Made by a program: the position numbers and the translations under genes. A stretch of 64,000 bases of DNA, taken from positions 8,566-72,565 of the forward strand of contig CANRAF010000004.1 in assembly GCA_947628535.1 (NCBI GenBank), read 5' to 3'. The notes under the pieces are model-generated. The model was not told where the DNA came from, ran no database searches, and saw only the letters and a program-made list of their open reading frames with translations. Positions 24,472 to 37,322 of this stretch are shown here, in pieces. The DNA is from an uncultured Bacilli bacterium. Lineage in GTDB: Bacteria > Bacillota_I > Bacilli_A > RF39 > UBA660. Within the stretch, counting starts at the first letter, position 1, and each line of letters opens with the position of its first letter.

Positions 24472-26487
24472 TTATTTAATAGGTTCAAATTTTATTTTTT
24501 TATCTTTCGCATATTTATGCGCATAAGAGTTTTTGTTTCCTTTTATAACTACATTATTACTTTTATAAAAAGCATAATTACTTATTTTTTGTACTGAATC
24601 AGGTATTGTTATTTCTTTTAAATTCTTACATTTTGCAAATGAATATTTTCCTATAGTTAGAAGTCCATCAGGTAATTCAATTTCTTTTAAGTTTTTACAA
24701 GAATAAAATGCTTCTTTTCCAATTGCTTTTAAATTTTTATTAAAGTTTATTTTTTCAATTGTACTACCATAAAAACATCTTTTAAAAATACGAGCCAAAT
24801 CATTATTTAAAGTTATTTCTTTTATTACTTTATTATCTTTAAATATTTCTGCTCCAATTTTTTCTACTGGTAAATTATTTATTTCATTAGGTAGTGTTTC
24901 TTTTTCTTCAATTTGCTTTACTTTAGTTATAGTAATCCAAGTTTTATATTGATTAAATGAGTATTTTTTATCTTTTTTAACTTTATATTCCTTATGAGAT
25001 GTTGCAAGTTGTTCTCCAATAATTGTTCCGAATTGTTTGTCTATAATGGCTGCAAAATTCATACCATGAGATGCTTTAAATAGAATAATGTCATCTTTTT
25101 GCAAGTTTTTATTTAAAGCATTTACCAGTTCCTCTTTATCTTTACAATAGATAGAATTTTTCCTTTTTTTACTATATTCTTCATATGCATATTTCATTTT
25201 TTCTCCATTAAATATGATAAGGTCGATATTATGCTCCAAGAGAAGTTTTCCAACATCACGGTGGATTTGTTCAGAAATATTTCCAAGTTCAAAGATATCT
25301 CCAAGTACTGCTACTCTTCTTGCGCTTTCTTTTATTTCTATTAGCTCAAATGTTTTTAAAATATTTTTAATAGCATCATAAGATGAGTTATAACAATCTG
25401 CTAAAATTTTATATTCACCAACATTTATTAAGTTTTGTCTAACGCCTTTTGTTTTATATTTAGTAATACCTCTTATTATTTTTTCTTCACTAATATTTAA
25501 ATATTTTCCAATTATATAAGCAGTTAAAGCATTTAATATATGATGTTCTCCTATTACTTTTAATTCAACTGGAATTTCTTTGTTTTCAATACTATCTACT
25601 ATAATAAATCTTGTTCCTTTGCTAGTTACTTTAATATATTTAGCATAATAGTCTGCTTTTTTATTATTTAAGGAAAAAGATAGTCTTTTTTGAACAAATT
25701 TATGTTTTCTTAAAATATCATCATCATAATTAATAATTGCAAGTCCATCTTTTTTGCCATAATCTGAAAGAGTAAATTTTTCTTTTGCTATATTTTCTCT
25801 TGACCCATACCATTCAATATGTGAATCTTTTATATTAGTATAAACTGCAATATCAGCTTCGAGAAGAAGCGCAGATCTTTTTACAATATCATAGGCTCCA
25901 TTTCCAGCTCCTGCTTCTTGGAGTAATATTTTGTCATTATAATTTAATTTTTTTACATTTTCAGCAGCTTTGAATGCAGAATTACTATTACCAGCAGATG
26001 CCACCATTTTGTTTTTATATTCTTCTTTTAAGCATGCTTCTATCATATCTTTAGTTGAAGTTTTACCAATAGAACCTGTTACTGCAATTACTTTTGCTTT
26101 TGATTGGTTTCTTATATAGTTTAAAGTTTTTAGTCCTGCGGATACCGGATCTTTACATATTAAACATCTCGCATTTTCTATTTTTTCGGGTGTTACAACA
26201 AACATGGCATTTTTACTAATTTTTTCTTTCATTTTGTCAGTTAAATTAAGATATCTAAATGTATAATAAATACATCCTGGTTTTATATTTTTGTATGATA
26301 TAGTTGGTTCTTTTATTTTTTTTCTTTTTAAAGATTCATATTCTTTTGGCACTTCTATTCCAGTTATTTCAGAAATTTTCTCTAAAGTTAATCTTTTTTT
26401 ATTTGCAAAAATTACTTTAAAAAATAATCTTTCTATTTTTCTATAAATTATTGCCAATTTTCTTATTATTTTTTTCATTTTTTTCAC
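24472..26487 (-). CDS. Mur-ligase-family protein (MurF-like amide ligase) fused to C-terminal BspA-type leucine-rich repeats (LRR_5).
   Basis: Mur ligase P-loop VIAVTGSIGKTSTKDMIEA. MurF-like NIKDSHIEWYGSRENIAKEK. C-terminal 120 aa carry repeats of the pattern IGKEAFYSCKNLKEIELP / IGKYSFAKCKNLKEITIP. The start abuts the xseB stop (RBS GGTGA inside xseB). Confidence 0.7.
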   Translation of the reverse strand: MKKMKKIIRKLAIIYRKIERLFFKVIFANKKRLTLEKISEITGIEVPKEYESLKRKKIKEPTISYKNIKPGCIYYTFRYLNLTDKMKEKISKNAMFVVTPEKIENARCLICKDPVSAGLKTLNYIRNQSKAKVIAVTGSIGKTSTKDMIEACLKEEYKNKMVASAGNSNSAFKAAENVKKLNYNDKILLQEAGAGNGAYDIVKRSALLLEADIAVYTNIKDSHIEWYGSRENIAKEKFTLSDYGKKDGLAIINYDDDILRKHKFVQKRLSFSLNNKKADYYAKYIKVTSKGTRFIIVDSIENKEIPVELKVIGEHHILNALTAYIIGKYLNISEEKIIRGITKYKTKGVRQNLINVGEYKILADCYNSSYDAIKNILKTFELIEIKESARRVAVLGDIFELGNISEQIHRDVGKLLLEHNIDLIIFNGEKMKYAYEEYSKKRKNSIYCKDKEELVNALNKNLQKDDIILFKASHGMNFAAIIDKQFGTIIGEQLATSHKEYKVKKDKKYSFNQYKTWITITKVKQIEEKETLPNEINNLPVEKIGAEIFKDNKVIKEITLNNDLARIFKRCFYGSTIEKINFNKNLKAIGKEAFYSCKNLKEIELPDGLLTIGKYSFAKCKNLKEITIPDSVQKISNYAFYKSNNVVIKGNKNSYAHKYAKDKKIKFEPIK

Positions 26488-27916: not shown

Positions 27917-28301
27917 CTTTCATAATGCTATCTAACATCCCATTTATTAATTTTACTACTTTTTCATCACTATATTTTTTCGAAAGTTCTATTGCTTCAT
28001 TTATTGCAACAATATCTGGAGTATCAGTATAAAGAAGTTCATAAATAGCAAGTGAAATTATGGCCTTATCAACTTTACTTACTCTATCAATGCTCCAGTC
28101 TTTCATATATTTATTAGCTATACTGTTTAATTTTTCTTCACGCTTTATTACTTCTTTTATAGAAGTGGTTACAAATTCGTTTTCTGCCTCTAAATTTTCC
28201 TTAATAATATCTTTTAATTCATATGATAGGTTTTTTTCTTTATAAATATATACTTGATATAAAACTTTAATAATTATTTCTCTAAGGGCACTTCTATTCA
28301 T
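27900..28301 (-). CDS. nusB: Transcription antitermination factor NusB.
   Basis: 133 aa. NusB family helices (...AIISLAIYELLYTDTPDIVAINEAIELSKKY...). Overlaps the xseA start. Confidence 0.9.
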   Translation of the reverse strand: MNRSALREIIIKVLYQVYIYKEKNLSYELKDIIKENLEAENEFVTTSIKEVIKREEKLNSIANKYMKDWSIDRVSKVDKAIISLAIYELLYTDTPDIVAINEAIELSKKYSDEKVVKLINGMLDSIMKGEKHE

Positions 28302-28319: not shown

Positions 28320-28348
28320 ATTATAAATGAAAAGGACTTTTTTGTAAA
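28320..28348 (-). promoter_or_regulatory. Sigma-A-type promoter for the nusB-xseAB operon.
   Basis: Minus strand reads TTTACA, a 17-nt spacer, then TATAAT. It ends about 18 nt upstream of the nusB ATG and sits just downstream of the sRNA terminator. Confidence 0.4.
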
Positions 28349-28349
28349 T

Positions 28350-28509
28350 AAAAAAGCCAGAGAATAAATAACGAAAACCTGTTTAAGTACAGGTGGTAAA
28401 TCACATAATGCTTTTAGGATTCTTAAAATAAAATTTTAAGCCTTCAACACGAGCATTAATTAGATCCCCTTATCGTTGCTTGTACGGTTTTAACTTAATA
28501 TTCTCTGAC
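28350..28509 (-). ncRNA. Candidate structured sRNA of about 160 nt with its own promoter and terminator. Family unknown (a 6S-like RNA is one possibility).
   Basis: Minus-strand transcript begins ...GUCAGAGAAUA and ends UAUUCUCUG-GC-UUUUUU, so the 5' and 3' ends form a perfect 9-bp closing helix followed by a U-run. Internal complementary segments (AAAACCGUAC with GUAC...GGUUUU; CCUGUACUUAAACAGG hairpin) are present. No ORF longer than 6 codons. Confidence 0.35.
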
Positions 28510-28515
28510 AATTAT

Positions 28516-28544
28516 ATTGTATCAAAATCTTTTTTTTATTTCAA
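28516..28544 (-). promoter_or_regulatory. Sigma-A-type promoter driving the candidate sRNA.
   Basis: Minus strand reads TTGAAA, a 17-nt spacer, then TACAAT. The predicted +1 falls at the start of the closing helix (about 28509). Confidence 0.4.
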
Positions 28545-28581
28545 TATTTTTACTACTTATTTTACAGATTAATTTACTAAT

Positions 28582-30168
28582 TTAAACTGTTTTTTCATCT
28601 TCATCAAACCAAATGTATTTATCTATTGTATCTCTTATTCCTTTTCCTTTAGCTATAGCCCAGTAGTATTGCTGTAAAGTTGCATCTCCATCATGATTTC
28701 CTTCAATTAGTTGAACGCTCCCATCTTCGTTTATTACAGCGTCCCAACCAACATATGAAACAGTTTTAACAACTTTTGCAGCCTCTTCAACCATTTTTAA
28801 TACTTTATCCCATGATGGAACTTGAAAGCCTTTAAACTTTACATTTGAAATTGGATGTTTTTCTACAAGCTCTCCAAATTTTGTACTACCATCACCTATT
28901 ATTTTACCAGTTTTAACATCAACTGGAGCAATTACTCCGCCGGCAGACCAATTATCAATAAAGCTTCCTCTTGAGGCGCCGAATCGCACTGTTGCATTTA
29001 TTATATCTACTTTGCCATCCTTATAATATGTATGAATTCTTATAGTGTTTACTGTTTCAGAGTTAAATTTTGCCATATCTTTATGCTGAATTATTATTTG
29101 TTCTACTATTCCCTTTTTATAATGTTTTATCTTTTTATATGTTATATAGTTGATAATTTCATATTTACTGACTTTATATTTTCTTATACCTACACCACAT
29201 GCAGTATCTAGTGGTTTAAATATAAATTCTTTTTCTCCGTTTATTAATTTTTTGTACTCATTATAATTTAATGTTTCTACAGAATACCACTTTCTTTTTA
29301 TCCATTTTTTAAATTTGTTATTAAATAAAATTTTTTTCTTGAAATATTTCCAAGTATCTGCATAATCAGTTGACCTTAAATATAGCTTTCTCCAAACTTC
29401 AGTTGTGATAAATTCTTTTTGTTTTTGAGGATTCATTTTATATAGGTTATATACATCAAATTCATGAAAATTGCTGCCACAATTTATTCTTGATTTTAAT
29501 ATTTCAAGATTAAGTTTAGCTTCGTTCCAATTCATTTCTTCCATTATTCTTCTTCTGTCTTTATCTTCTTGTTCATGAATTATCTTGTTTGCTAAAGGAA
29601 TTCTTTTTGATCTTATTTTTTTGTATTGTTCTATGTTTTTTAATTCTTTAGATGAAAGACTATATTTTCCGCTTACAATAAATTTTAATTCATTATAGTT
29701 TTTTTCTTTAGCAATTTTTAATCGTTCTTCTGCTTCCTCTTTAGAACAATTTGTTTTCTCACTTATGATGTTTATATACCATTTTTTATTTAAATTTCTT
29801 TTTTCAATTGATTTTTTAATAGTTTCTTTAAGTGATTCTTTATCTTTTTCAGTAAGGTCCCATACTTTATATTTATAATATTGCCATAATTTTAAATCAT
29901 ATTTTTTTGCATCATTTAAAATTTGTTTTTCGGATAAACTAGACTCTTTATTTATTTTTTTTATGTACTCTTTTTTCTTTTTTTCATTTTCTCCAATCAT
30001 TTTTAACTTATTTTTATTTAAACAATAGTATTTATACTTTACATAATCATTGATGCTTATTCCACATATTTTGGCATAAATTATTTTACTGGTTGATTTT
30101 ATAACTCCTTCTCCGGTATTTTTCTTAACTTTTCTTATACATCTTATTAGTTGTTTTAATTTTTTCAT
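28582..30168 (-). CDS. Long ATP-grasp_ST amidoligase paralogue P1 (528 aa). N-terminal triple-repeat domain plus C-terminal ATP-grasp.
   Basis: C-terminal motifs KPLDTACGVGIRKYK, NTIRIHTYYKDGKVDIINATVRFGASRGSFIDNWSAGGVIAPVDVKTGKI, HPISNVKFKGFQVPSWDKV, VGWDAVINEDGSVQLIEGN. The N-terminal 250 aa carry three repeats of about 30 aa (AKICGISINDYVKYKYY / AKKYDLKLWQYYKYKVW / AKEKNYNELKFIVSGKY). Confidence 0.7.
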   Translation of the reverse strand: MKKLKQLIRCIRKVKKNTGEGVIKSTSKIIYAKICGISINDYVKYKYYCLNKNKLKMIGENEKKKKEYIKKINKESSLSEKQILNDAKKYDLKLWQYYKYKVWDLTEKDKESLKETIKKSIEKRNLNKKWYINIISEKTNCSKEEAEERLKIAKEKNYNELKFIVSGKYSLSSKELKNIEQYKKIRSKRIPLANKIIHEQEDKDRRRIMEEMNWNEAKLNLEILKSRINCGSNFHEFDVYNLYKMNPQKQKEFITTEVWRKLYLRSTDYADTWKYFKKKILFNNKFKKWIKRKWYSVETLNYNEYKKLINGEKEFIFKPLDTACGVGIRKYKVSKYEIINYITYKKIKHYKKGIVEQIIIQHKDMAKFNSETVNTIRIHTYYKDGKVDIINATVRFGASRGSFIDNWSAGGVIAPVDVKTGKIIGDGSTKFGELVEKHPISNVKFKGFQVPSWDKVLKMVEEAAKVVKTVSYVGWDAVINEDGSVQLIEGNHDGDATLQQYYWAIAKGKGIRDTIDKYIWFDEDEKTV

Positions 30169-30181
30169 TATATACTTCCTT

Positions 30182-31756
30182 TCACTTGATATATGGCTTT
30201 ATTATATTTAAAATTCCTTTTTCTTCTGTGATTCCATAAATAGATTGGAATACACGCATTGCATGATTATGGTTTCCTTCGATTAATTCGATTTTGTTAT
30301 CATTAGTAATAGCGATATCCCATCCAACATATACTACATCTTCAATTTTTTTTGCTACCTCATTTATTGTTTTTATTACTTTATCCCAATTAGGTATTTG
30401 GAAACCTTTAAATTTTATATTTGAGATTGGATGAGTTTTATAAATATTTCCTTTTTTATCTGCACCATCAGTATCAATTTTACCTGTTTTAGTGTTGATG
30501 CCCGCGATTATTCCGCCTGCCGACCAGTTATCATAATTATTTTTTACACCTGTCCTAAAAACAGCTGCTAATATATTTACTTTCCCGTCAACTTTAATTG
30601 TTGCTATACGAATAGAATTACATGATTCTTCATGAAACTTTGCAGTGTCTTTATGTTGAATTATAAATTCTTCAATTAATCCGGGTCCGCTTTGCATTAT
30701 ACATTCGTAAACATTTCTATTTTTCTTTTCGTTTTCGTTTACCTTAAATTTTTGAAAACCCTTGCCTTCCTGCATATCTAATGGCTTATAGGCAATTAAA
30801 TTTAATCCTTTTATATTTTTTTCGAAATCTTCAAATGTTAGATTTTCTGTTAAAAACCATTTTCTATTTATCCATTTTTTAAAGGTTTTATTAAATAAAG
30901 ATTTGTCTTTAAAATATTTATACTTTTCTTTTGGAACCCAATACTTTATTTTCATTTTAAAATGATTATCTTCTGTCATGAATTTACGTTGTTCTTCTTT
31001 TGATTTATTATATAGTTTATAAAGATAATATTCATCTCCATTACAACCACAATTTATTCTGGCATTAATATAGTTTATACGATATCTTCCAATACTAATC
31101 CCCATTTCATTAGAAGCTTTTAATCTTTGATTTTGTTTTTCTTTTTGTTTTTCTTCAAAACTTTTTTCTTCCTCTTTTGAAAGAATTGGATTCTCTTTTT
31201 CTTTTAAATTTTCTAAGTCTTTTTTACTTAATAAATATAAATCTTCTGTTATGAATTTTTTGTATGAATATCCTTTTTTTCTAGCAATATCCATTCTTTC
31301 TATTGCTTCTTGCTCCTTTAAATTAGTTTTTTCCATTACAACTTTTGCATACCATAATTTGTTCTTTTCATTTTTTTCTTGTAACTTATCAAGTGCTTGT
31401 TTGTATTCCTTTAACTCCTCTAGTGTGAATTCCCACATCCTGTCTTTTATAAACATTTTATAAGTTATTCCAAGTTTTTGAGAAGTTTTAACTAGCTTTA
31501 TTGCTTCGCTTTTACTAACCCCCCCCCCAGCATATTTTTGGGTCTTTTTTATTGCTTCTTTTTTTAGTTTTAGTATTTCTCCAAGTTCAATCAATTCTTC
31601 TTTTTTCTTTTTATAACTTTTATTTTTTGCATAATCATTTAGACTTATTCCATATTTATGTGCCTTTATTAGCCTTTTTATTATTTTAAAACTATTCCAT
31701 CCTGTTTCTCGTTTTATCTTATTAAAGTTTTTTATCTTTTTCTTCATGTTTTTCAT
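30182..31756 (-). CDS. Long ATP-grasp_ST amidoligase paralogue P2 (524 aa). Contains an in-frame G10 tract.
   Basis: KPLDMQEGKGFQKFK, NSIRIATIKVDGKVNILAAVFRTGVKNNYDNWSAGGIIAGINTKTGKI, HPISNIKFKGFQIPNWDKV, VGWDIAITNDNKIELIEGN. N-terminal repeats AHKYGISLNDYAKNKSY / SQKLGITYKMFIKDRMW / ARKKGYSYKKFITEDLY. Confidence 0.7.
   Translation of the reverse strand: MKNMKKKIKNFNKIKRETGWNSFKIIKRLIKAHKYGISLNDYAKNKSYKKKKEELIELGEILKLKKEAIKKTQKYAGGGVSKSEAIKLVKTSQKLGITYKMFIKDRMWEFTLEELKEYKQALDKLQEKNEKNKLWYAKVVMEKTNLKEQEAIERMDIARKKGYSYKKFITEDLYLLSKKDLENLKEKENPILSKEEEKSFEEKQKEKQNQRLKASNEMGISIGRYRINYINARINCGCNGDEYYLYKLYNKSKEEQRKFMTEDNHFKMKIKYWVPKEKYKYFKDKSLFNKTFKKWINRKWFLTENLTFEDFEKNIKGLNLIAYKPLDMQEGKGFQKFKVNENEKKNRNVYECIMQSGPGLIEEFIIQHKDTAKFHEESCNSIRIATIKVDGKVNILAAVFRTGVKNNYDNWSAGGIIAGINTKTGKIDTDGADKKGNIYKTHPISNIKFKGFQIPNWDKVIKTINEVAKKIEDVVYVGWDIAITNDNKIELIEGNHNHAMRVFQSIYGITEEKGILNIIKPYIK
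31480..31640. repeat. Near-identical DNA segment of about 160 bp shared with 34780..34940 (paralogues P2 and P4).
   Basis: By eye the two stretches are almost identical, for example ...cttttactaaCCCCCCCCCCagcatatttttggg(t/c)ttttttattgcttctttttttagttttagtatttctccaagttcaatcaattctt... Confidence 0.7.
31519..31528 (-). repeat. Homopolymeric G10 tract (C10 on the plus strand) within paralogue P2 (codons about 76-79, ...KYAGGGVSKS...).
   Basis: Plus strand ctaaCCCCCCCCCCagc. The coding strand reads GCT GGG GGG GGG GTT = A G G G V. Confidence 0.9.
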
Positions 31757-31817
31757 ATCAAAATCTCTCCTTAATTATGTCTATATTTTAATTACAAATA
31801 TATTTTCTATATTAAGT

Positions 31818-33371
31818 CTATTTATCATTAAGATATTTTTCTACTAATGGCCTAACGCCTTTGTTTTCTATTACAGCATATGGATACTGAAATATTCTAA
31901 TTCCAGGATTATGATTTCCTTCAATTAATTCAATTTCACCATTTTTAGTTATTGCTATATCCCATCCTATATATGGCATTTTCGGCACTTCTTTTGATGC
32001 GTCTTTTAATTTTTTTATTATTTCATTCCATTTTGGAATTTGAAATCCTTTTATTTTTGTATTAGTATCTGGATGTAGCTCATAAATGTTCCCTTTTTTG
32101 TCTACTGCATCTGTTATAACGATTCCTGTTTTAGGATTAATTGATGCTACAAGACCTCCGGCAGTAAAATTATCTATGGTTTTTGTTTTATTACATCCCA
32201 TGCGAAGGGCTGCCATAATAATTTCAAATTTTCCATTTCTAATTATAGTCATAATTCTTATTGTATTTAAAGAGCCTGGATATATTTTACCTATATTTTC
32301 ATCTTGCTCTATAACTTCTTCTATTATATAATCTTTATTTTTAATTTTTTTATATGTAAAATAATCGCTAAAAATATTTCTATTTACTTTGTATATATTT
32401 ATTCCACTTCCACCATAATCATATAATGGTTTTACAATTATTTTATTAAGATTAGAAATTTTTTCTTTAAAATCATAATAATCTTCAAAATCTGATGCAA
32501 TAAACCATTTTCTATGTAAATAATTTTTAAATTTTTCATTGAATAGTGCTTTACTATCAAAAAATTTATAATTTCCTCCATAATCACAGTATTTTATACT
32601 CATTTTTAAACAAACTTCATTAGTCATAAATTCTTTTTGCTTATCCATATCATACTTGTATAACATTAATTGATAATAATCATTTAATTTCGCTTGGGAA
32701 ATTGCTCTTGATTTTAAAAATTCTATTTTAAATCTTGGCTCTGACCAATTCATTTCCTTTCTAATTTTTTGTTCATATTCTTTATTTTCTTTTTTTATCT
32801 GCTTAACATTTTTTTTCTTAAATACTGGTTTTGGATAAACTTTAATTTCTTCAACAGTTAATTTTTCTAATCCATTTAACATAAAATTAACTGTTGAATA
32901 TCCTCTTTCTCTAGCAATATTTAGTTTTTCAAGTACTTCATCTTTAGATTGGCCTGTTTTATCCATTGCTACTTTTATATACCATTCTTTGTCTTCTTTT
33001 GTTTTTTTATGTTTCTTGTTTAGTGCTTCACCATATTCAACTAGTTCATCTAAAGAAAAATTCCACATCTTGCCAAGTGTATACATTTTGTATGTTATTC
33101 CATATGATTGCGCTACATTCAATCGTTCCTTTCCCTCTTTTTTAGATAATTTTTGTTTCTTTATTGTTTTATTAAGGGCATTCTTTTTATATTTTAATGT
33201 TTTGCTAAGTTTTTTTAATTCTTTTATTGTCATATTATAACATCGATTTTTTATATATGGAGTCATAGTAATTCCATACATTTTAGCCATCATCAATTTT
33301 TTTATTATTTTAATATTGCTCCATTTTGTTGCTCTTTTTATTACCCTTAAATTTTTTCTAATTCGTTTCAT
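31818..33371 (-). CDS. Long ATP-grasp_ST amidoligase paralogue P3 (517 aa).
   Basis: KPLYDYGGSGINIYK, NTIRIMTIIRNGKFEIIMAALRMGCNKTKTIDNFTAGGLVASINPKTGIV, HPDTNTKIKGFQIPKWNEI, IGWDIAITKNGEIELIEGN. N-terminal repeats AKMYGITMTPYIKNRCY / AQSYGITYKMYTLGKMW / ARERGYSTVNFMLNGL. Confidence 0.7.
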   Translation of the reverse strand: MKRIRKNLRVIKRATKWSNIKIIKKLMMAKMYGITMTPYIKNRCYNMTIKELKKLSKTLKYKKNALNKTIKKQKLSKKEGKERLNVAQSYGITYKMYTLGKMWNFSLDELVEYGEALNKKHKKTKEDKEWYIKVAMDKTGQSKDEVLEKLNIARERGYSTVNFMLNGLEKLTVEEIKVYPKPVFKKKNVKQIKKENKEYEQKIRKEMNWSEPRFKIEFLKSRAISQAKLNDYYQLMLYKYDMDKQKEFMTNEVCLKMSIKYCDYGGNYKFFDSKALFNEKFKNYLHRKWFIASDFEDYYDFKEKISNLNKIIVKPLYDYGGSGINIYKVNRNIFSDYFTYKKIKNKDYIIEEVIEQDENIGKIYPGSLNTIRIMTIIRNGKFEIIMAALRMGCNKTKTIDNFTAGGLVASINPKTGIVITDAVDKKGNIYELHPDTNTKIKGFQIPKWNEIIKKLKDASKEVPKMPYIGWDIAITKNGEIELIEGNHNPGIRIFQYPYAVIENKGVRPLVEKYLNDK

Positions 33372-33486
33372 TTTTTACTCCTTAATTATTTTCACTATAT
33401 TCATTATAATTAGTTTTAAAAATATAGTCAAATAAAAAACATAGCATTTATCTCACAAAATATATGTATTACTATGTTTTTTTGTT

Positions 33487-35049
33487 TTATTTTAAATAGG
33501 GTTTTATGACATTACCTATACCTTTATCTTCTAAAAGAGCATACGCTGATTGAAAAACGCAGACATCATGATCATGATTTCCTTCAATTAGCTCAATATC
33601 GCCATTTTTGGTAATTGCAACATCCCAACCAATATATGGCATATTTTCTACAACAGTAGATGCTTCTTTTAATACTTTTACTATCTCTTTCCACTTAGAT
33701 ATTTGCTCGCCTTTAAATTTTTGATTTGTTATAGGGTGTTTTTTGTAGATATGTCCTTTTTTATCTGAAGCATCAGATATTATTTTTCCTGTTTTTGGAT
33801 CTATTATAGTTATTATTCCTCCAGTTGACCAATTATCATATTCATTATTTACTCCAATTCTAAGAACAGATCCAAGAATTGTAAATTTTCCATCTATATT
33901 CATAGTAGCAATTCTTAAAGTATTACAGGATTTATTATTAAATTTAGCAGTGTCTTTATGTTGAATTATAAACTCTTCAACAATTCCATTTGGTTGTTTT
34001 TTTATGTAATTATAAACTCTTTTATTTTGTTTTTTACTTTCATTTACTTCAAATTTTTTAAATCCTTTCCCCTGAAGACTACTAATTGGTTTATAAGCAA
34101 TTAAATTTAATCCCTTTATATTTTTTTCGAAATTTTCAAATGATAAATTTTCAGTTACAAACCATTTTCTTTTTACCCATTTCTCAAATGTCTTATTAAA
34201 CAATTCTTTATTTTTAAAATAAATATAATTTTTTTGATAATCACAATATGTAAATATCATTCTCCAATGCTTGTCTACAGTTATATAATTCCTTTGTTGT
34301 TTTTCGCTTTTATTATATAGTTTATATACTAAAAATTCTCGTTCACAACAACCACAGTTAAGCTTTGCCTTTTCACATTCAATTCTGTATCTGCTGTTAG
34401 TCCAGTTCATCTCTTCCATTACTTTTTTCTTATCTTGATTTATTCTTTTTCTTAGCTGCTTATTTTTTTTCTTATCAGTTTTTGATTTTGTATTGTCTTT
34501 TTTATTTAAACAATCTATTTCATTATTTGATAAAAGATACATATTTCGTATTATTATATCAGAATACGAATATCCTTTACTTGATAGTTTATTTATTGCT
34601 TCTAAAGCTTCTTCATTAGTAAGTTTAGATTTTTCACTAATTAATTTTACATAATATTCTTTTCTCTCTTTATAATTTATCTTTTTTAAATCTAATATTT
34701 CTTTATACTCTTTTAATTCTTCTTTAGTAAATTCAAAGCATTTATTATTTAAATATTTTTTATATGTTATACCAAGTTTCTGGGCAGTTTTAACTATTTC
34801 TATTGCTTTGCTTTTACTAACCCCCCCCCCAGCATATTTTTGGGCTTTTTTTATTGCTTCTTTTTTTAGTTTTAGTATTTCTCCAAGTTCAATCAATTCT
34901 TTATTTTTCTTTTTATAACCCTTGTTTTTTATATAATCGTCTAAATTTATTCCGTATTCTCTTGCTCTTACTAATCTTTTTATTATCTTTATATTATTCC
35001 ATTTTGTTTGTTTTTTTAGCTCTTTTAGATTTTCTGATGTCCTTCTCAT
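33487..35049 (-). CDS. Long ATP-grasp_ST amidoligase paralogue P4 (520 aa). Contains an in-frame G10 tract. Closest paralogue of P2.
   Basis: KPISSLQGKGFKKFE, NTLRIATMNIDGKFTILGSVLRIGVNNEYDNWSTGGIITIIDPKTGKI, HPITNQKFKGEQISKWKEI, IGWDVAITKNGDIELIEGN. N-terminal repeats AREYGINLDDYIKNKGY / AQKLGITYKKYLNNKCF / SSKGYSYSDIIIRNMY. Confidence 0.7.
   Translation of the reverse strand: MRRTSENLKELKKQTKWNNIKIIKRLVRAREYGINLDDYIKNKGYKKKNKELIELGEILKLKKEAIKKAQKYAGGGVSKSKAIEIVKTAQKLGITYKKYLNNKCFEFTKEELKEYKEILDLKKINYKERKEYYVKLISEKSKLTNEEALEAINKLSSKGYSYSDIIIRNMYLLSNNEIDCLNKKDNTKSKTDKKKNKQLRKRINQDKKKVMEEMNWTNSRYRIECEKAKLNCGCCEREFLVYKLYNKSEKQQRNYITVDKHWRMIFTYCDYQKNYIYFKNKELFNKTFEKWVKRKWFVTENLSFENFEKNIKGLNLIAYKPISSLQGKGFKKFEVNESKKQNKRVYNYIKKQPNGIVEEFIIQHKDTAKFNNKSCNTLRIATMNIDGKFTILGSVLRIGVNNEYDNWSTGGIITIIDPKTGKIISDASDKKGHIYKKHPITNQKFKGEQISKWKEIVKVLKEASTVVENMPYIGWDVAITKNGDIELIEGNHDHDVCVFQSAYALLEDKGIGNVIKPYLK
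34780..34940. repeat. Near-identical DNA segment of about 160 bp shared with 31480..31640 (paralogues P4 and P2).
   Basis: See the partner repeat. It includes the poly-G tract and encodes ELIELGEILKLKKEAIKK(A/T)QKYAGGGVSKS...QKLGITYK. Confidence 0.7.
34821..34830 (-). repeat. Homopolymeric G10 tract (C10 on the plus strand) within paralogue P4 (...KYAGGGVSKS...).
   Basis: Plus strand ctaaCCCCCCCCCCagc. Same codon context as the P2 tract. Confidence 0.9.
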
Positions 35050-35151: not shown

Positions 35152-35946
35152 TTAATATTTATCTAAAAATGTATATGTTTTATTTTCGTCTTTGTATCCA
35201 AGTACTTGTTGAAGTATTACATTTTCACTACTTTTCATTATATGAATATCTATGTTTTTATCAATTTTTCTTAAAGATTCTATTAATTCTTTTATCTCTT
35301 TTCTTTTTCCTTCTTCTTTTTTTGTAACTGTACAGGCACAATCTAAAAATGATAAGTTACAGTAGTTTTTAAAGGCAATTATATCTTTTTCTTTTACAAA
35401 ATAAAGTGGTCTTATAAGTTCCATGTTATGAAAGTTAACACTTTTTAATTTTGGCATCATTGTTTTATATTCACCAGTATAAAATATATTTAGTAGAATT
35501 GTTTCTATTACATCATCAAAGTGATGTCCAAGGGCAATCTTATTACATCCAAGTTCTTGGGCTTTTGCATATAAAGATCCTCTTCTTTTTCTGGCACATA
35601 AATAACACATTGATTTTTGATTTTCTATTTCTTTAAAAATATTACTTTCATATATTGTTGCATTTATATTTAATTTTTTTAAATTTTCTTTTATTTTTTC
35701 TAGATTTTCTTTTTTATACCCTGGATCCATTACTATAAATTTTAAACTGAATTTAAATTTGCTATGTTTTTCTAATTCCTGCATACATTTTGCTAAGATG
35801 AATGAATCTTTTCCCCCAGAGATACAAACTGCTATTTTATCTCCATCTTCTACTAAAGAATATTCTTTAACTGCCCTTAAAAACTTGGAATATATTTTTC
35901 TTTTAAATGTTTTAATTAGACATCTTTCAATTTCATTTGCTTCCAC
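35152..35946 (-). CDS. ttcA: TtcA-family PP-loop ATPase (tRNA 2-thiocytidine synthase-like tRNA thiolation enzyme).
   Basis: PP-loop CISGGKDS. Conserved cysteine pairs (CYLC ... CACT). 264 aa. Confidence 0.7.
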   Translation of the reverse strand: MEANEIERCLIKTFKRKIYSKFLRAVKEYSLVEDGDKIAVCISGGKDSFILAKCMQELEKHSKFKFSLKFIVMDPGYKKENLEKIKENLKKLNINATIYESNIFKEIENQKSMCYLCARKRRGSLYAKAQELGCNKIALGHHFDDVIETILLNIFYTGEYKTMMPKLKSVNFHNMELIRPLYFVKEKDIIAFKNYCNLSFLDCACTVTKKEEGKRKEIKELIESLRKIDKNIDIHIMKSSENVILQQVLGYKDENKTYTFLDKY

Positions 35947-35999: not shown

Positions 36000-37322
36000 T
36001 TAATCTCGTTTCAGATCTTCGACTATCTTTTCAATACTTTTTGTGGTCTGCTCTCCAGTTTCCATATTTTTTATAGTTACCTCATTTTGCTTCTCTTCAT
36101 TTTCTCCGATTATACATACATAAGGTATTTTTGCTCTATTAGCATATTTTAATTTTGATTTAAAACTTTTGTCTTCAAGGAAAGTATCAGTATTTATTTC
36201 ATTTTCTCTTAAAATTTTAGCAACTTTTAAAGAATATGGAATATTTTCAATACTAAATGGAACTACTAAAACTTTAGTTAATGTTTTTACTTTAGAATTT
36301 ATTATTCCTGCTTCTTTTAGTTTATAAAATAATCTGGTAATTCCTATTGAAATACCTATACCACTTAAATTTTCATCAAGATAGTATTTGGTTAAATTAT
36401 CATATCTTCCTCCAGAACAAATACTTCCAAGTTCTGGATAATCATCAAGTACTGTTTCGTATACTGTTCCTGTATAATAATCAAGTCCACGTGCTATAGT
36501 TAAATCAATTTTATAAAAAGTGTTATCACTGTTAAATTTTCCAATATTACTTATTACATATTCAAGTTCATTTACTCCACTATTAAAATTTTCATTTTCT
36601 ATATTTAGTTTCTTTAGCTTTGATATTATTTCTTCGTTTGTTCCAGTAATAGTAATGAAGTTTAATATTTCTTCTATTTTTTCGTTATCGATATTAATTT
36701 TTCTTAACTCTTCTATTATTTTTTCTTTTCCTATTTTTTCAAGTTTATCAATTATTCTTAAAATATCACTTGTTTTATCAGAAATAGAAAGTTCATTAAA
36801 AAATCCTAAGAGAATTTTTCTATTATTTATTTTTATTGTAAATTTACCAAAGTTTAACTTTTTAAATATTTCATAGATAATTGAAGGAACTTCTACATCA
36901 TAATTTAAACTTAAATTTTCATCTATAACATCTATGTCACATTGATAAAACTCTCTATACCTTCCCTTTTGAGGCCTTTCACCGCGATATACTTTTCCTA
37001 TTTGATATCTTTTAAATGGGAATGCTAAATTATAATAATTTTTAGATACATATCTTGCAAATGGAACAGTCAAATCAAATCTTAAAGATATATCGTTTTC
37101 ACCTTTTTTAAATCTATATATTTGTTTTTCAGTTTCACCTTTAGCTTTCGCCAAGAGAATAGATGAATACTCAAGTAATGGTGTATCAATTGGTAAAAAT
37201 CCGAAACTTTCATAAGTTTTTCTAATTGTATCAATCATTTCATTAAATAATATTTGGTCTTCTGGGAGAAGTTCCATAAAACCTGGCATTATTTTTGGAG
37301 TTATTTTATCCATTGTAATCAC
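36000..37322 (-). CDS. hisS: Histidine--tRNA ligase.
   Basis: Class II aaRS with HisRS motifs (...RFDLTVPFARYV..., YRGERPQKGRYREFYQCD) and a C-terminal anticodon-binding domain. 440 aa. Confidence 0.85.
   Translation of the reverse strand: MITMDKITPKIMPGFMELLPEDQILFNEMIDTIRKTYESFGFLPIDTPLLEYSSILLAKAKGETEKQIYRFKKGENDISLRFDLTVPFARYVSKNYYNLAFPFKRYQIGKVYRGERPQKGRYREFYQCDIDVIDENLSLNYDVEVPSIIYEIFKKLNFGKFTIKINNRKILLGFFNELSISDKTSDILRIIDKLEKIGKEKIIEELRKINIDNEKIEEILNFITITGTNEEIISKLKKLNIENENFNSGVNELEYVISNIGKFNSDNTFYKIDLTIARGLDYYTGTVYETVLDDYPELGSICSGGRYDNLTKYYLDENLSGIGISIGITRLFYKLKEAGIINSKVKTLTKVLVVPFSIENIPYSLKVAKILRENEINTDTFLEDKSFKSKLKYANRAKIPYVCIIGENEEKQNEVTIKNMETGEQTTKSIEKIVEDLKRD

Follow-up and report, generated by a model that had tools for sequence, protein, structure and literature searches.

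Gene content and features of the locus

The window (the whole stretch of DNA that was analysed, 64,000 nt) corresponds to positions 8,566-72,565 of the forward strand of contig CANRAF010000004.1 (GCA_947628535.1), from an uncultured Bacilli bacterium of UBA660. It contains, in this order, hisS (36000-37322), a PP-loop ttcA-like gene (35152-35946), four ATP-grasp paralogues, the small RNA gene studied here, nusB, xseA and xseB. The RNA gene occupies the spacer between a 528-aa ATP-grasp gene (28582-30168; PF14397) and nusB (28301-27900). Its features are listed below, in which R1 denotes a covariance model made from the window RNA and three homologues; labels such as L076 denote related genome or metagenome loci, 13 of which carry an orthologue of the RNA.

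28561-28566, minus strand: TGTAAA core of a GTGTAAA(A/G)TT block (block noted at 28561-28567), about 55-62 nt upstream of the RNA start
28516-28544, minus strand: predicted promoter of the RNA gene, sigma-A/sigma-70-type; -35 TTGAAA 28544-28539, 17-nt spacer, -10 TACAAT 28521-28516
28350-28509, minus strand: probable 6S RNA gene, about 160 nt; RF00013 match 28356-28509, model positions 18-170 of 187; R1 score 192.6 bits
28499-28509, minus strand: closing stem, 5' strand GUCAGAGAAUA; pairs with 28366-28356
28486-28491, minus strand: helix P2, 5' strand AAAACC; pairs with GGUUUU 28379-28374, adjoins the central bubble and lies within the predicted pRNA template
28470-28485, minus strand: central bubble, 5' side GUACAAGCAACGAUAA, 16 nt; unpaired in the Rfam 6S alignment
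28395-28469, minus strand: apical (internal) arm with GGGGAUC/GAUUUACC, UAAUGCU/AGCAUUA and CUUAAA/UUUAAG; internal loops GUGUUGAAnGCUU and AAGAAUCCUAA
28377-28394, minus strand: 3'-bubble hairpin ACCUGU-ACUUAA-ACAGGU; includes CCACCUG...CAGG, a widely conserved motif of 6S, and overlaps the P2 3' strand at its 3' end
28356-28366, minus strand: closing stem, 3' strand UAUUCUCUGGC; pairs with 28509-28499
28350-28355, minus strand: U6 run adjoining the closing stem; with that stem as hairpin, probably the intrinsic terminator and the 3' end of the RNA
28320-28348, minus strand: separate nusB promoter TTTACA-17-TATAAT, promoter scan 11/12; a neighbour, not part of the RNA

A preliminary description of this DNA had proposed that it encodes a structured, non-coding sRNA about 160 nt long, with a promoter of its own and a terminator-like end. 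All the sequence features it named are present where it had placed them, and covariation in orthologues can now be added. The near-consensus promoter on the minus strand (TTGAAA-17-TACAAT, 28544-28516) moreover carries a TG at 28524-28523, giving an extended -10 TGaTACAAT (28524-28516), and scores 10/12 with TG in the promoter scan. An extended -10 (TGnTAnAAT or TGnTATAtT) at a constant distance from the RNA start recurs in nearly all of 13 loci compared for it, 12 of which are orthologues. Promoter-like sites as such are common in the AT-rich DNA of the window, where the scan found 9 compared to 7.1 expected in shuffles. The GTGTAAA(A/G)TT block also stands before the orthologous promoters in L001, L075, L076, L078, L080 and L081, whatever the upstream gene, and is possibly an upstream promoter element, of UP type or a regulator site.

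From these signals we infer that the RNA starts at G28509, 7 nt past the -10, and ends within U6 (28355-28350), the terminator-like end that had been described and that adjoins the closing stem. Most orthologues likewise carry 5-9 T after this stem; L087 does not. Termination at U6 with the closing stem as hairpin is likely; because the U-run comes directly after it, the stem itself probably acts as terminator hairpin, and the ends would perhaps need hardly any processing, or none. The second consensus promoter noted for nusB just downstream is indeed found after the U-run (TTTACA-17-TATAAT, 11/12), followed by AGGAGG (28314-28309), an ATG at 28301 and the nusB ORF (28301-27900, minus strand; PF01029, E=1.3e-30). 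The strand of the RNA holds no ORF of at least 30 aa; a small-ORF reading was considered and dropped. The RNA has a GC content of 30% and is thus very AT-rich.

Two other regions of the window drew attention. At 28582-35049 (minus strand), four tandem paralogues of 528, 524, 517 and 520 aa stand between the ttcA-like gene and the RNA gene; the first carries at its C-terminus a 'sugar-transfer associated ATP-grasp' domain (PF14397), to judge by eye the other three are similar. Since L078-L080 have the ttcA-like gene, the RNA and nusB without genes between, this array is a lineage-specific insertion or expansion. At 24472-26487 (minus strand), a 671-aa protein joins Mur ligase middle and C-terminal domains to a BspA-type LRR_5 region, an unusual fusion.

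Match to the Rfam 6S family

A default Rfam scan of the whole 64-kb window returned no family at gathering score, including no tRNA, riboswitch or leader. The 6S match surfaced only under an E-value threshold: RF00013 (6S/SsrS) aligns to 28356-28509 on the minus strand over model positions 18-170 of 187 with 33.8 bits, against a gathering score of 46.4, so that the window copy falls short of the family by score only. Its E-value is 3e-5 when 501 nt are searched and 0.0038 for the window in full, in which it is the sole Rfam match at E<=0.05, and it falls on the strand and coordinates predicted from the promoter and the U-run. The cmscan comparison that had been suggested for this RNA thus points to a single family, and the suspicion that it was 6S-like has gained ground through three orthologues that score above the family's gathering score.

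In the RF00013 alignment, AAAACC/GGUUUU is the helix adjoining the central bubble, whose strands are GUACAAGCAACGAUAA and ACCUGUACUUAAACA, and the consensus CCCACCUGg..CaGGuU is matched by CCACCUG...CAGGUU on the 3' side of the window RNA. The paired positions flanking the bubble and this motif are thus shared with the family, whereas the closing stem is in another register than that of the model, because of which this part of the alignment earns little score.

The orthologues L083 (62.3 bits), L080 (52.6 bits) and L077 (48.0 bits) all lie above the 46.4 bits required for gathering; synteny and R1 matches of 70-123 bits connect them with the window copy. The remaining orthologues anchored on the PP-loop gene reach 38-40 bits and the close homologues 29.9-39.3 bits, 6S being the only family matched by each; in every orthologous locus it is the only Rfam family that matches at the position of the RNA. 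The orthologues therefore form an unbroken series, with the window RNA at one end and, at the other, sequences that the gathering score recognises as 6S. R1 finds one sense copy within the 64-kb window.

Secondary structure and covariation

The 166-nt segment folds with a minimum free energy of -36.5 kcal/mol (z=-2.71 compared to dinucleotide shuffles, 1 of 200 of which folds as well). This fold energy is only moderately unusual and as such suggestive, not decisive; what decides is the covariation among orthologues. Folding of the RNA, one of the checks proposed beforehand, gives together with the Rfam alignment a rod made up of closing stem, large central bubble and apical arm.

Covariation was assessed in alignment A4, a model-guided alignment of 14 distinct sequences (the window and 13 loci) that replaces alignment A3, which held an antisense window match. 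In A4, 96.0% of cells pair, compared to 35-47% in controls with partners shifted by 1-3 columns, and the proposed search for compensatory pairs found changes on both sides in 26 of the 36 pairs; none of 500 shuffles reaches any of five measures. As A4 was fitted to the model, these counts are biased towards its structure. MAFFT with RNAalifold, whose alignment does not depend on the model, nevertheless recovered part of this architecture: the closing stem (with covariation), together with the apical and 3'-bubble hairpins. Helices that are kept by compensatory change imply selection on the structure.

The closing stem GUCAGAGAAUA/UAUUCUCUGGC comprises 11 pairs, one of them G-U. The first 9 nt had been described as complementary to the last 9, and CAGAGAAUA (28507-28499) does match UAUUCUCUG (28366-28358) perfectly, within a stem that reaches 11 pairs. 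All 10 modelled pairs of this stem change on both sides among the 14 sequences, with 97% of cells pairing (for instance GUCAGAGAAU/AUUCUCUGGC, ACCAGAGGUUAC/GUAACCUUUGGU and ACCAGAGGAUAC/GUAACCCUGGU). In the apical arm, both-side changes occur in 4 of 7, 7 of 7 and 4 of 6 pairs of helices 3, 4 and 5 respectively, and the loops are near-invariant. Instead of helix 3, MAFFT with RNAalifold paired GGGA with UCCU; both of these strands are invariant, and the 6S-type helix 3, which covaries, was preferred.

Around the bubble the sequence itself is kept. On the 5' side, ACCGUACAAG and CGAUAAGG are near-invariant in the orthologues; CCACCUG and the GG/CC pairs that close the bubble (alignment columns 62-63/152-153) do not vary in any of the 14 sequences. 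P2, which corresponds to paired positions of the Rfam 6S consensus, pairs in 95% of cells, its pairs being mostly invariant with one compensatory change among the 14 sequences. The 3'-bubble hairpin is kept in 12 of 14 sequences with G-U variation only. Covariation neither supports nor refutes these two nearly invariant elements, which compete for the same GG. The bubble measures about 15 nt on its 3' side, including the small hairpin, compared to 16 nt on its 5' side. Of the internal pairings in the preliminary description, AAAACC/GGUUUU (28491-28486 with 28379-28374; 95% of cells) and ACCUGU...ACAGGU (28394-28377) hold, whereas the GUAC/GUAC pairing across the bubble does not: orthologues keep GUAC on the 5' side but have GUAA or GUUC in place of the 3' copy.

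A scan for terminators flagged the 3'-bubble hairpin (28377-28394), followed by UUUUCGUUAUUU, as resembling an intrinsic terminator within the RNA. Any transcripts that ended there would be about 135 nt long and without the closing stem.

Orthologous loci and gene neighbourhood

In 65 genome loci centred on nusB, nhmmer and R1 detected the RNA within 2.5 kb in L001-L003 only; there a 612-aa gene separates it from nusB, which is about 2 kb downstream. Because L075 has hisS, the ttcA-like gene and then directly the RNA, the PP-loop (ttcA-like) gene was used as anchor, and it is a better one than nusB, which is a poor anchor for this RNA. R1 matches of 37-123 bits were obtained downstream of the ttcA-like gene, directly or with one gene between, in L077, L078/79, L080, L081/82, L083, L087, L088 and L090. 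A stricter core DNA pattern applied to metagenomes added 3 true homologues. The loose pattern ACCACCTGTN{4,9}ACAGGTTTT gave 8 matches on viral contigs, none of which is the RNA according to R1, and these were discarded as chance. Across the 13 other loci the RNA is 52-90% identical, in differing gene surroundings.

The metagenome-assembled genomes (MAGs) of this lineage found through loci anchored on NusB are uncultured, from gut, and labelled variously Bacilli, Mollicutes or Tenericutes; the literature as searched gave nothing specific on 6S RNA in the Mollicutes or the Tenericutes. A NusB identical to that of the window is encoded in the ENA assemblies ERZ27249519 and ERZ27249283. One locus (L009, from a related rabbit-gut 'uncultured Bacilli' MAG) carries at 1236-1846 a full-length OLE RNA (RF01071, 391 bits) just upstream of nusB; the 64-kb window has no OLE match in either the gathering scan or the scan at E<=0.05.

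Upstream of the RNA lies hisS or aspS, and downstream a ThiF-family gene is found in two relatives: directly in L083 (2339-3025), and after one small TM2 gene in L087 (4663-5364). We take yrvM of B. subtilis to be a ThiF-family gene as well. The title of Suzuma 2002, as cited in PMC10578484, places the B. subtilis 6S-1 gene in the aspS-yrvM spacer. The neighbourhood thus resembles that of 6S-1 (bsrA), with hisS/aspS before the RNA and, in some relatives, a ThiF/yrvM-like gene after it; the lineage of the window differs in having the PP-loop (ttcA-like) gene between hisS and the RNA, and usually nusB next.

Comparison with known 6S RNAs

A length of 180-200 nt is usual for 6S RNAs. The window RNA, at about 160 nt, is below this, which counts against the 6S reading; compared to the 190 nt of B. 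subtilis 6S-1 it is shorter because its closing stem is shorter. It further differs from 6S-1 in being very AT-rich and under the Rfam cut-off, and from the textbook 6S RNA in that it has no separate terminator hairpin and that the GTGTAAA block around -60 travels with its promoter. The architecture is the same as that of 6S-1: a rod with closing stem, helix P2, large central bubble and apical arm. Truncated 6S-1 with only the bubble and short arms runs through the full functional cycle in vitro (PMC8876501).

Free 6S-1 forms a hairpin of 5-7 bp in the 3' half of its bubble (PMC8876501), and the ACCUGU/ACAGGU hairpin of the window RNA sits at the equivalent place. The 6S-1 subtype is characterised by such a pre-formed hairpin and by a G-initiated pRNA from a ...ACCGnAC template; the window RNA, with a conserved but nearly invariant hairpin and the template motif ACCGUAC, may belong to it. 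The product RNA (pRNA) of 6S-1 is 5'-GUUCGGUCAAAACU (PMC3923129); the predicted window template AGUUAAAACCGUAC would yield 5'-GUACGGUUUUAACU, antisense to 28495-28482 and identical to the 6S-1 pRNA at 10 of 14 positions, and by analogy its synthesis would start opposite C28482. After pRNA synthesis 6S-1 forms a 'central bubble collapse helix' (PMC8876501). When the RNAs were folded with the template blocked, an AACGA/UCGUU helix appeared in 7 of 14 sequences, with variants AUCGAUAA/UUAUCGAU and UAACGAU/AUCGUUA; these predicted folds are only suggestive of a bubble-collapse helix in the window RNA.

The 6S genes of Weissella, too, are hardly found by covariance search, and were recognised by synteny, a TATAAT -10 and a 3' terminator (PMC8414754). 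These non-canonical or weak candidates resemble the window copy in being scarcely detected, yet lack the canonical rod and central bubble, whereas the window RNA keeps a rod supported by covariation.

Identity of the RNA and alternative explanations

The RNA is homologous to 6S in sequence and structure and is independent of its neighbouring genes. We consider it very probable (around 0.9) that 28350-28509 on the minus strand is the 6S RNA gene (ssrS/bsrA-type) of an uncultured, AT-rich gut Bacilli lineage. It is ordinary biology, a newly recognised and unannotated member of a known family. One alternative, a chance hairpin in AT-rich intergenic DNA between promoter-like hexamers and no gene at all, could appeal to the frequency of promoter-like sites and to a folding z-score of only -2.71, but has next to no probability left: conservation in 13 other loci with differing flanks, compensatory changes and R1 E-values down to 1e-43 refute it. 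A leader or attenuator acting in cis on nusB, such as a NusB/NusE-responsive or other terminator/antiterminator element governing read-through into nusB-xseA-xseB, would account for the terminator-like end and for the position directly upstream of nusB in the window, L076 and L078-L080, an order that looks ancestral. A constant association with nusB was not found, the downstream gene being another in 8 of the 13 orthologous loci: a 610-612-aa SH3/deacetylase gene in L001 and L074, an unrelated 415-aa gene in L075, LRR_5 in L077, HTH in L081, ThiF in L083, TM2 then ThiF in L087 and GH25 in L088. Because the downstream gene varies in this way the RNA is not a nusB-specific leader, in line with the earlier remark that it is not simply the nusB leader. 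In addition, nusB has its own 11/12 promoter past the U-run, orthologues exceed the 6S gathering score, and an alternative antiterminator pairing was not found, which together make a leader very improbable.

It is somewhat less far-fetched, though still improbable, that this is a rod-shaped sRNA descended from or resembling 6S that has no action on RNA polymerase, being perhaps a base-pairing sRNA, or a remnant that serves as terminator and promoter spacer. The window copy is sub-threshold for 6S and its closing stem is shortened, and reduced genomes often lose conserved ncRNAs (PMC4779614), all of which would fit this alternative. Against this, the parts most conserved are those of 6S function, namely both bubble strands, the CCACCUG...CAGG motif and the loops of the apical arm; the compensatory changes imply that the structure is under selection, and B. 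subtilis 6S-1 cut down to bubble and short arms completes its functional cycle in vitro (PMC8876501).

Proposed mode of action

As established in E. coli and B. subtilis, 6S RNAs mimic an open promoter and bind RNA polymerase holoenzyme. Applied to the window RNA, transcription would proceed from its own sigma-A-type extended -10 promoter to the U-run after the closing stem, and the primary transcript of about 160 nt would probably be near the mature RNA. It would fold into the 6S rod with closing stem, short P2, large central bubble and apical arm and, as in those two species, mimic an open promoter and occupy the active site of the housekeeping sigma-A holoenzyme, which would be sequestered when nutrients are scarce or in stationary phase. 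On outgrowth, the polymerase would copy the 5' bubble strand and P2 into the predicted G-initiated pRNA; its synthesis would unwind P2, refold the RNA, possibly through the AACGA/UCGUU helix, and release the enzyme.

A more specific proposal, which we regard as rather unlikely, is that of a minimal 6S peculiar to this clade, in which the short stem doubles as terminator without nuclease processing, the GTGTAAA block around -60 provides a lineage-specific regulatory input, and read-through from 6S into nusB couples NusB levels to it. If true, terminator read-through from the strong 6S promoter, made possible by a close ancestral linkage between 6S and nusB, would link the level of NusB, an antitermination factor, to 6S transcription.

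Conclusions

Knowledge of how 6S RNA works is unchanged by this gene. It is a concrete case of a true 6S member that is missed by the Rfam gathering score, and a clade-specific model made from alignment A4 would recover 6S genes in related MAGs. The finding adds a 6S RNA annotation for little-known uncultured gut Bacilli with small, AT-rich genomes, and indicates that 6S, a global regulator of RNA polymerase, is kept in a shortened form in these reduced genomes.
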